A stretch of 6,041 bases of DNA from a virus (Monodnaviria; Loebvirae; Hofneiviricota; Faserviricetes; Tubulavirales; Inoviridae). Below the pieces are notes generated by a model. The model saw nothing but the letters and a program-made list of their open reading frames with translations. It was not told the origin of the DNA and made no database searches. Where the stretch lies: the IMG/VR virus record IMGVR_UViG_2645727593_000001, positions 1 through 6,041 of that record. The stretch is one strand, 5' to 3'. Below, piece by piece: positions 1-6,041 of this stretch (position 1 is its first letter; each line of letters opens with the position of its first letter). Made by a program: the position numbers and the translations under genes.

Positions 1-525
<525 letters not shown>

Positions 526-526
<1 letters not shown>

Positions 527-981
527 CAGTCGTTCTCCTGCATCAATTGTTGGTATTCAAGTGCAAAAAGCTGGGCCAGTGTACGGACTTTGCCCTCGGT
601 GATTACTCCACCAGACAACACACTCTCCGCAGCAACCAGTTGTTGAGTCTTGGCACGACGCTGCCATTGTGCTTGTATTGCCTCGAGTTGCTGTAACCGT
701 CGTTCGATGTCGGCCAGTCTGGTCTGGTAGTCAGGCTGATGTTGTGTAAGTTGGGTCAACTTCGAATGTGCTTGCATGTTTTGCCATACCGGATTGGTAC
801 CCAATGCTTTGGCTCGAATCAGTGCCAGCGCAGGCGTCGCCAGGATGTAATACTTGGCAACAGTAAGTGAGGTATGTCCCAGAATATGCGCAATTTCTTC
901 GGCGCTGCCCCCTTGCTTTAACATAATATACATTATGCGCACTGTTATCAGGACTGATGAAAACCGAAGGCCAGTCATCAC
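526..981 (-). CDS. Hypothetical protein with an HTH-like or tyrosine-recombinase-C-terminus-like segment and a coiled-coil tail; true start uncertain
   Basis: The 151-aa frame begins at GTG 981 and its codons 13-22 are encoded by the dif-like site itself. Alternative ATG starts lie inside dif at 933-931 and 924-922. 'SAEEIAHILGHTSLTVAKYY' resembles both a helix-turn-helix and the LGH...Y region of a tyrosine recombinase, and 'QTRLADIERRLQQLEAIQAQWQRRAKTQQ' is coiled-coil-like. No confident family assignment. Confidence 0.4.
916..943 (-). other. dif: dif-like XerC/XerD recombination site; putative prophage attachment junction
   Basis: Minus strand reads AGTGCGCATAA-TGTATA-TTATGTTAAAG. Compared with E. 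coli dif as I recall it (GGTGCGCATAA-TGTATA-TTATGTTAAAT) that is 26 of 28, with an identical 6-bp central region and mismatches only at the outermost base of each arm. It lies ~260 bp beyond the stop of the last phage gene. Confidence 0.8.
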
Positions 982-1202
982 CAGAATTGCTGTAACCCAT
1001 CAATTTCATCAACTGGCCACATCAATGCATGGACGACTCACGCCTTGCGTCGTTCGTCTCGATAGCTGCCCTTTAAAAGCGGCCTGGCAGGAAGCGCGTT
1101 GCGCTGTCTCCTGCTGCTCTGTAATTTCTCCCTGGCTTCGGCGGTCAGGCAGCTGCATCACATGAAACATCATCATGCCGCCTTACATGCCGCGTTGCGG
1201 CA

Positions 1203-3517
<2,315 letters not shown>

Positions 3518-3528
3518 AAATCACCCTC

Positions 3529-3819
<291 letters not shown>

Positions 3820-3833
3820 TCACCACCTGATTA

Positions 3834-5483
<1,650 letters not shown>

Positions 5484-5487
5484 TTCA

Positions 5488-5658
5488 TCACCAGTAAAAA
5501 CTAAATGGTTTTACAATTCGACGGAAATCCTGATCGGCTTTTTCAAGGATAACTGAAACAACATATTCTTCAATGGTTGCATTTTTATTGTAAATAATTC
5601 TTTCTATCTGCTCGATAGTGTATTCCGGCAATTTAACTTTAAATTCTTGAGTAGACAT
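5488..5658 (-). CDS. Small hypothetical protein (56 aa) between the major coat gene and pIII; possible accessory (moron) gene
   Basis: Hand translation from ATG 5658-5656 to TGA 5490-5488 gives [62 protein letters not shown] Shine-Dalgarno about 4 nt upstream. The stop lies 4 nt before the pIII ATG. It is absent from the supplied ORF track, presumably for length. The protein is hydrophilic and charged, not coat-protein-like. Confidence 0.5.
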
Positions 5659-5750
5659 AAAACCTCACAAATTAGATTTAAACCCAATGACGCAACATAA
5701 CCCACAAAGGGAACCAAACATCATAAAAATAAAATCAAACATAAATATCC

Positions 5751-5777
5751 AAAAAAAGGGCGGAATATCCGCCCTTC
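5751..5777 (-). terminator. Rho-independent terminator downstream of the major coat protein gene
   Basis: On the minus strand a GC-rich stem GGGCGGA / TCCGCCC (7 bp, extendable to 9 with AA/TT) with loop TAT is followed by TTTTTTT. It begins about 16 nt after the pVIII stop. Ff phages have a strong terminator at the equivalent position. Confidence 0.75.
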
Positions 5778-5792
5778 CTCATAAAAAACAAC

Positions 5793-6041
5793 TCAGATAC
5801 TTCTGATGGCTCCCCATACTTTACGAACGCCAGCAAAAGTCAGATAAACTGTAACTCCTGCAACACCGATAGAAAGAATAACAGCAGAAACAGAAGACAT
5901 ATCAATGCTGTTAGTCAATGATGAAAAATCGACTGTACCAGCAAAAGACGGAGATACAGCAAGAGCAGAAGCAGCGGAAAAAGATAAAGCTGCAACTTTC
6001 TTATCAACACCCTTAAAAAAATTGGTCATTTTTGCAAACAT
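5793..6041 (-). CDS. pVIII-like major coat protein precursor
   Basis: 82 aa. Signal-like N-terminus ending 'ALAVSPSFA', then a mature region with an acidic/polar N-terminus, a hydrophobic core 'VSAVILSIGVAGVTVYLTFAG', and a basic C-terminus 'VRKVWGAIRSI', the typical inovirus major coat architecture. Followed by a terminator. The start codon is at the window edge. Confidence 0.8.
   Translation of the reverse strand: MFAKMTNFFKGVDKKVAALSFSAASALAVSPSFAGTVDFSSLTNSIDMSSVSAVILSIGVAGVTVYLTFAGVRKVWGAIRSI

Follow-up and report, generated by a model that had tools for sequence, protein, structure and literature searches.

Filamentous phages of the CTX class carry an attP made of two sites, attP1 with a 12-bp centre and the inverted attP2 with a centre of 5–7 bp. 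Neither site is usable as a duplex, and the folded attP(+) serves as the substrate (PMC4246890). In the model for this class XerC swaps one pair of strands, pairing beside the XerC site sets the specificity of the exchange, replication resolves the intermediate, and the reaction is irreversible (PMC4246890). YpfPhi and CUS-1 have been placed in the same class (PMC4246890). In a further set of inoviruses, the UPPhi901 group, the internal junctions of the repeats agree with dif over only its first 15 bases or so (PMC7307601).

We analysed a 6,041-nt stretch of inovirus DNA (the window; IMG/VR record IMGVR_UViG_2645727593_000001), which begins in host DNA and ends inside a prophage. A sequence-only reading of this stretch had pointed to a near-canonical dif site and had proposed that it marks the boundary of a prophage integrated by host XerC and XerD. 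Our results support the view that the 28-bp sequence is the true chromosome-terminus dif, rebuilt as a phage/host hybrid by the insertion of a filamentous phage. The features on which this view is based are collected in Table 1.

Table 1. Positions of features in the window and, where a locus is named, in related sequences
Feature	Position	Strand	Basis or remark
Retron-type reverse transcriptase, 5' third	1–389	+	RVT_1, 8e-11
Decayed island remnant	388–915	-	Two fragments joined via 2.47- and 2.58-kb deletions
Hybrid dif, pIV-side prophage junction	916–943	-	E2348/69 empty site differs only at base 943
XerD-binding arm TTATGTTAAAG, from host	916–926	-	Outermost G is the last base of the integrase-gene fragment
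6-bp central region TGTATA, from host	927–932	-	Same as K-12
13-nt identity of host dif and phage attP, ACATTATGCGCAC (plus strand)	930–942		Window compared with empty site and tandem junction
XerC-binding arm AGTGCGCATAA, outermost A (943) from phage	933–943	-	A in tandem-copy attP, G in E2348/69
Non-coding phage DNA, attP XerC arm to pIV stop codon	944–1202	-	
pIV secretin, last gene of the prophage	1203–2462	-	PF00263, 1.9e-25; phrog_1012 'protein IV of M13', 1.8e-116
pI / Zot-like assembly ATPase	2459–3517	-	Pfam/PHROGs
pVI-like minor coat protein (DUF2523)	3529–3816	-	Pfam/PHROGs
pIII-position ORF, 549 aa, putative adsorption protein	3834–5483	-	(GSGTGT)n linker
pVIII-like major coat protein	5793–6041	-	Prophage runs past the right window edge
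attP-type hairpins on E. coli plasmids, examples	L008 3995–4075; L012 2502–2595		
Phage-borne KOPS	L003 7763, 15715; L018 27508, 35460; L026 21427, 31427		

The dif site and its empty counterpart

On the minus strand the site reads AGTGCGCATAATGTATATTATGTTAAAG, which divides into AGTGCGCATAA-TGTATA-TTATGTTAAAG and has the 11-6-11 architecture of dif, with a 6-bp centre between XerC and XerD arms of 11 bp each, and is close to the species consensus. No other sequence in the window lies within three mismatches of E. coli dif, GGTGCGCATAATGTATATTATGTTAAAT, and no match at this threshold arose in dinucleotide-preserving shuffles of the window (0/200). The reference sequence was confirmed as exact in MG1655 (NC_000913.3, 1590750–1590777), where it lies 76 bp from hipA. 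The window site shares 26 of 28 bases with K-12 dif, including the entire TGTATA centre. The two mismatches are G>A at position 1, the outermost base of the XerC arm (window 943), and T>G at position 28, the outermost base of the XerD arm (window 916). Comparison with MG1655 dif thus bears out the sequence-only reading, which had described a dif that differs only at the outermost base of each arm and keeps its centre intact. Its estimate that the site lies about 260 bp past the pIV gene was also accurate, as 259 bp separate base 943 from the pIV stop codon.

Four chromosomes of the E2348/69 lineage (EPEC) are identical to the window from position 1 to 942 (100% identity) and diverge from there on. 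These chromosomes are phage-free, and hold a plain GGTGCGCATAATGTATATTATGTTAAAG at the place where the phage part of the window begins, followed by 79 bp and then by hipA-hipB. Identity with the host stops within the XerC arm, one base before the end of dif. As E2348/69 identity ends at window position 942, inside dif, we conclude that dif is the insertion boundary, as had been proposed. Two features of CTX-type prophages are therefore present at this locus: a dif-derived sequence bounds the prophage and the empty site is a plain dif. The phage part of the window (917–6041) recurs as prophages of 99–100% identity in about 27 other complete E. coli genomes. A survey of 5,426 complete E. coli genomes did not yield the exact combination of left flank and phage seen in the window, and the exact 46-nt junction had no match in the genome or metagenome contig collections, which points to an E2348/69-like source strain outside these collections.

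The host side of the site was compared with the phage-free strain NT1F34 (locus L004). Window 775–916 corresponds to L004 11865–12006, and window 917–943 to L004 14584–14610. A 2.58-kb deletion (L004 12007–14583), which also removed dif position 28, left dif fused to an integrase gene broken in its middle. This scar predates the phage, base 916 being already G in phage-free E2348/69. The suggestion that the outer-base changes reflect a phage/host hybrid site consequently holds for the A at position 1, which is of phage origin, and fails for the G at position 28, which is the scar of a host deletion.

The flank also records other events. In NT1F34 and many other E. coli strains an island lies 147 bp from the XerD side of dif; its intact version (L004 8705–14436) contains two tyrosine-recombinase genes (466 and 516 aa) together with ORFs of 788 and 144 aa that have no Pfam match. 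A minus-strand ORF of the window (526–981; 151 aa) was considered as a tyrosine-recombinase gene with dif inside it and was rejected, as the comparison with NT1F34 showed that two deletions had fused a pair of gene fragments with dif there. TOK-001 has a full-length 'retron St85 family' gene whose start matches the reverse transcriptase fragment at the left end of the window at 100% identity; in the window the gene is truncated at base 389 by the adjoining remnant of the island. Just upstream, E2348/69 carries an ABC-three-component defence system.

Junctions and attP in full-length lysogens

The far junction and attP lie beyond the right edge of the window, and the anatomy of the whole element was extrapolated from lysogens carrying a phage 99–100% identical to that of the window. 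Five such lysogens were compared (JNE21-003, AST240, AST20, RIVM_C037166 and 48956). JNE21-003 carries two tandem copies of a 7,952-bp phage unit, flanked by a LysR gene and hipA. AST240 has a single copy, AST20 and RIVM_C037166 have two each, and 48956 has three or more, such that tandem copies occur in four of the five lysogens. In the 48956 array (L026 22158–25546, and from 32158 onward), IS21-family istAB sits in the pIV gene of copies 2 and 3 and is absent from copy 1; the array therefore arose from duplication of a disrupted copy, or else its copies were homogenised.

The pIV-side (left) junction reads AGTGCGCATAA-TGTATA-TTATGTTAAAT followed by host DNA in all five lysogens, and is always an 11-6-11 hybrid. 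The junction between tandem copies reads AGTGCGCATAA-TGTGACACGCG-TTATGTTGAAAA. At the hipA-side (right) junction, available in four lysogens, the sequence is GGTGCGCATAA-TGTGACACGCG-TTATGTTGAAAA with host DNA beyond the XerC arm, i.e. a half-dif with an 11-bp spacer; the fetched 48956 locus ends within its array, and its hipA-side junction thus lies outside that locus. The outer base of the XerC arm is A in the tandem junction, where it comes from the phage, and G in the hipA-side junction, where it comes from the host. The left host flank is ATGGTGGG in three lysogens and GTGGTGGG in two, while the right host flank is AACATAAACC, replaced by AAAATTATAG in RIVM_C037166.

A full 28-mer dif is found once per array and once in each of the 22–45-kb lysogen loci examined. 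No second dif turned up in these loci when ungapped 28-mers were allowed as many as eight mismatches. The far junction escapes such a search because its spacer is 11 bp long, and it was found by reading the junctions and then searching with the XerC arm alone. The second dif-like site that the sequence-only reading had expected at the other end of the prophage is thus present in lysogens of the same phage, in the form of a half-dif. For annotation purposes, the far end of such prophages can be recognised as XerC arm, TGT, 8 nt and TTATGTTGAAAA, a pattern that ordinary 28-mer dif searches miss.

The reciprocal hybrid junctions are the pattern expected from a single exchange on the XerC side, as in CTX-type integration, with only one of the two products being dif-like. 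Because host dif and phage attP are identical over window 930–942, the crossover lies within those 13 nt, which are made up of the XerC arm minus its outermost base and the TGT that opens the centre. The site therefore pins the prophage boundary to within 13 bases. XerC cleaves between its arm and the centre (PMC4246890), which corresponds to 932|933 here and falls inside the 13-nt identity.

In the relatives attP lies between the tandem copies and comprises two inverted dif-like sites. Site B has the tandem-junction sequence given above, with its 11-nt spacer. Site A, AGTGCGCACAA-TGGCG-TTATGTATAAAA, has a 5-nt spacer and lies in inverted orientation about 55 nt from site B. Between the two is a 10-bp GC stem, GGCCGCTGCG, with an 11-nt loop. 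The morphogenesis and replication genes of the phage are all on one strand, and in Inoviridae the strand that codes for these genes is, as a rule, the packaged (+) strand. The 116-nt attP in (+) sense was predicted to fold with an energy of -42.9 kcal/mol, compared to -14.1 ± 2.5 kcal/mol for shuffled sequences (z = -11.6). In the predicted hairpin the duplex XerC arm and a further 2 bp are separated by a 6-nt bulge from another 3 bp, after which come the duplex XerD arm and the GC stem. Identical phage copies therefore have the elements of a CTX-type attP, namely an inverted dif-like pair and a predicted (+) hairpin with an irregular centre.

Matches to the hairpin region, at 81–98% identity, are present in about 900 E. 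coli genomes. Nine of these E. coli hairpin loci were fetched, and they represent the ends of other inovirus prophages or prophage remnants, situated by hipA or in tandem arrays, with one on a plasmid. Nearly the same 94-nt hairpin occurs in Y. pestis NCTC5923 (L021 3806–3900) and in Lelliottia, Phytobacter, Kluyvera and Erwinia tracheiphila (L019, L020, L023 and L024). In Yersinia, Lelliottia and partly in Erwinia, where the hairpin is nearly the same, the phage proteins compared are less than 50% identical to those of the window, indicating that conservation is much stronger in the attachment module than in the phages around it.

When 10 variants from different phages were placed on the predicted structure, 94.5% of the cells were paired. 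The (+)-strand XerC arm, TGT and the XerD arm were essentially invariant among these variants, while the partner strand and the loop drifted. Diversity was low for an analysis of covariation: most pairs were invariant, and a true compensatory change was seen at one internal pair only. An apparent covariation at pair 1–95 was set aside as partly an artefact, base 1 being host-derived in the right-junction copies. The predicted attP hairpin is thus supported by folding energy, conserved architecture and precedent rather than by covariation.

Matches to the hairpin extend beyond chromosomal prophages. About 487 places on plasmids match its site A and stem-loop and at least part of site B, mostly beside remnants of IS200C or ISNCY. 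These copies on large plasmids have the appearance of fossil inovirus attachment regions. One of the E. coli plasmids in Table 1 (L008) also carries a dif-like site with four mismatches at 1286–1313. A single match, in a MAG contig assigned to 'Candidatus Nanosynbacter', probably reflects contamination during binning.

Route of integration and the copy that serves the chromosome

Very probably the hybrid dif of the window was produced by CTXphi-type integration through host XerC and XerD. This type of integration, as described for CTX-phi, CUS-1 and Ypf-phi, had been put forward by the sequence-only reading, and it is supported by the reciprocal junctions, the attP architecture and precedent. 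No integrase or recombinase gene was found among the 10 annotated genes of the 7,952-bp unit or when the window genes were scanned against Pfam and PHROGs. The coding strand of the phage is collinear with the top strand of dif, as predicted by exchange with (+) single-stranded DNA.

In the packaged (+) single strand, sites A and B would pair to form one long hairpin, in which both the XerC arm and the XerD arm are duplex and flank a centre containing a 6-nt bulge. If the CTXphi precedent applies, XerC would cut after ...GCGCATAA in both the hairpin and dif and swap one pair of strands, a step that is consistent with all of the junctions. The common TGT would then stabilise the exchange, and replication would resolve the intermediate. 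The product at the pIV end combines the phage XerC arm with the host centre and the host XerD arm, and this is the site read in the window. The product at the other end is a presumably dead half-site made of the host XerC arm, the 11-nt phage spacer and an XerD-like arm, again as read in the junctions. Xer-mediated excision of the duplex prophage would not be expected, and we infer that it does not occur; progeny would be made by rolling-circle replication across tandem copies, with which the arrays in four of the five lysogens are consistent. By analogy with CTXphi, the exchange substrate would be the single strand rather than the duplex, and XerC alone would catalyse the exchange.

The single-stranded hairpin step rests on the CTXphi precedent, because the sequence by itself fits an exchange at duplex site B equally well. 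Exchange of a duplex is the route of VGJphi-type phages, whose replicative form recombines through a single dif-like attP in a reversible reaction that leaves a XerCD-excisable prophage. The junctions read here would fit an XerC-side exchange between dif and duplex site B, and phages of the VGJ type likewise use XerC first and replication second (PMC4246890). We nevertheless consider this route unlikely. VGJ attP is a single 29-bp site with a 7-bp centre, whereas the phage studied here has an inverted pair with spacers of 11 bp (site B) and 5 bp (site A), and the inverted pair and its stem-loop have been kept across phages that are less than 50% identical in protein. Moreover, the long and short centres of CTXphi are reported to be unsuitable for Xer recombination as duplexes (PMC4246890). 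No lone duplex attP of this kind, about 29 bp long and with a centre of 7 bp, was found in the phage copies, nor was the degenerate XerD arm with XerD-first exchange that distinguishes the TLC type; the crossover interval lies in the XerC arm and TGT. A different explanation altogether is that homologous recombination imported a segment containing prophage and dif from another lysogen, with no de novo Xer integration. The phage is 99–100% identical across unrelated strains, as import would predict. However, the E2348/69-specific flank, including scar base 916, reaches dif, and import would need a crossover within the 26-bp dif core. A Xer event at dif is the simpler reading, and we regard import as highly improbable.

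With CTXphi-type integration as the preferred route, one junction would be usable by the host and the other would not. Of the two, we predict the window copy to be the working dif and the site at the far end to be crippled. The window site is predicted to be functional because it keeps the 11-6-11 layout, the native centre and the native XerD arm. By the same prediction it is the chromosome-dimer-resolution site of the lysogen and the landing site for further phage copies. The comparison of the two junctions thereby points to the one that the cell must still use for chromosome separation.

Both outer-base variants also occur separately from the phage. The position-1 variant (A1) is found in the native dif of phage-free NT1F34, and also in the host-derived XerC arm of CUPF09, where the attP hairpin is kept but the 5 kb fetched have no annotation of an intact phage gene. 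The position-28 variant (G28) is carried by phage-free E2348/69 in its sole dif-like site within the 50-kb terminus region, and appears to be tolerated. E. coli would thus tolerate changes at both outermost dif positions, one brought by the phage and the other derived from a neighbouring deletion. No other complete E. coli genome had the double variant A1+G28, and outer arm positions contribute to recombinase binding (PMC2731167). It is conceivable on these grounds that the two changes weaken binding of XerC and XerD and that the hybrid site is crippled, with poor dimer resolution there. We find this quite unlikely, given that A1 or G28 singly is present in the sole native dif of a phage-free strain, and that natural variation of dif within species concentrates at these very positions (nt 1–4 and 27–28), with a centre that is always 6 bp (PMC2731167). 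In addition, the centre and the inner arms are unchanged, and the arrays offer no alternative other than a site with an 11-bp spacer. A dif with both variants may still be measurably less active, which would link prophage carriage to chromosome-segregation fitness.

The expected location at the replication terminus was upheld in relatives with the same flank by synteny with the K-12 dif locus (ydeQRS ... dif-hipAB), a switch in GC skew and convergence of KOPS. Over 50 kb of E2348/69, GC skew is +0.012 before dif and -0.046 after it. KOPS counts (plus:minus) were 4:0 to the left of dif and 0:1 to the right in the same 50 kb (Fisher p = 0.2), and 4:0 to the left and 0:4 to the right in lysogen AST20; the counts per locus are too small for statistics and were used only as evidence of the same direction across loci. 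In the lysogens, KOPS converge on the hybrid site from both sides. Most phage copies contain exactly one KOPS (GGGNAGGG; Table 1), which points to the rebuilt dif, and none is in the blocking orientation. Neither of the two phage copies in RIVM_C037166 (L025) contains a KOPS. The presence of one KOPS per phage copy may be due to chance, as about one is expected per 8 kb, both strands together.

The phage lineage and its described relatives

The pIV, pI and pVI proteins are 32–49% identical in amino-acid sequence to those of Ypf-like prophages in Y. pestis and E. coli (TUM14759) and of a Lelliottia prophage. No meaningful nucleotide match was obtained with megablast or blastn against deposited phage genomes. 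In tblastn searches of the same phages the best match to pI was a gut metagenomic inovirus (39.5% identity), and pI had no IKe-like or I2-2-like match among them. A literature search returned no description of this lineage. We tentatively suggest that the phage could belong to an undescribed lineage of CTX-type E. coli inoviruses with a portable, Xer-dependent attP hairpin module. The result would then add a distinct E. coli inovirus lineage to the class of CTXphi, Ypf and CUS-1. The mechanism is already known for this class from CTXphi, CUS-1 and YpfPhi, and the view of Xer-mediated integration is unchanged.

Several other properties of the phage were noted. An 18-bp unit repeated 13.2 times (96% matches) at window 4205–4442 codes for the (GSGTGT)n linker of the pIII-position ORF. 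The length of this gene differs among lysogens (1578, 1614, 1632, 1650 and 1668 nt), and the repeat number therefore varies. A sister phage is present far from the terminus in E. coli E600003 (L007 14001–22636, between ybiB and hcxB). Its pIV-to-pVIII block is 98.7% identical to that of the window phage from position 998 onward, and a different 'replication endonuclease' gene and an IS110-family transposase replace the RstA-like replication gene and the dif-type attP, in what looks like a swap of the integration/replication module. About 11 genomes share the left boundary of this sister phage. Homology to the IS110-type sister begins only at 998, and window 944–997 is specific to the dif-integrating module. 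In NZ_OZ547048.1 the phage matches lie at about 640.9 kb and about 1,428.5 kb, roughly 790 kb apart, and several other genomes have matches at 4–10 places.

The site itself is closest to E. coli chromosomal dif, with which it shares the locus adjoining hipA, the 11-6-11 layout, an identical centre and 26 of 28 bases. It differs from chromosomal dif in the phage-derived A at position 1 and in the G at position 28 that comes from the neighbouring deletion. The UPPhi901 group resembles the window phage in consisting of E. coli inoviruses that form tandem repeats at dif; unlike the window phage, its members are kin of IKe and I2-2 and have GGGES repeats in g3p (PMC7307601). YpfPhi of Y. pestis and CUS-1 of E. 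coli O18:K1:H7 are, like the window phage, dif-integrated enterobacterial inoviruses with an inverted XerC/XerD pair and tandem copies (PMC4266046). They also have the same gene order, and there is base-for-base alignment between the Y. pestis hairpin and the hairpin family of the window phage. In contrast to YpfPhi and CUS-1, the window phage does not have two accessory ORFs between pIV and the junction, its replication protein has a different family annotation, its XerC arm begins with A instead of G, and its spacer is TGTGACACGCG instead of TGTACGACTCG. Judged from these sequence comparisons, the window phage is distinct from CUS-1, Ypf and UPPhi.

The closest parallel in mechanism is CTXphi of V. 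cholerae (Val et al. 2005, via PMC4246890). Like the window phage, CTXphi has no integrase and carries an inverted dif-like pair with a long centre (12 bp, compared to 11 here), a short centre (5–7 bp, compared to 5 here) and a (+)-strand fold. In both phages the crossover is on the XerC side, with a usable dif rebuilt at one end and a dead site left at the other, and both form tandem arrays and have a small divergently transcribed gene beside attP. The window phage differs from CTXphi in its host, E. coli, and in the distance between its attP sites, which is about 31 nt compared to about 90 bp in CTXphi. It also has different genes and no toxin cargo, and its dependence on Xer is presumed by comparison with CTXphi.
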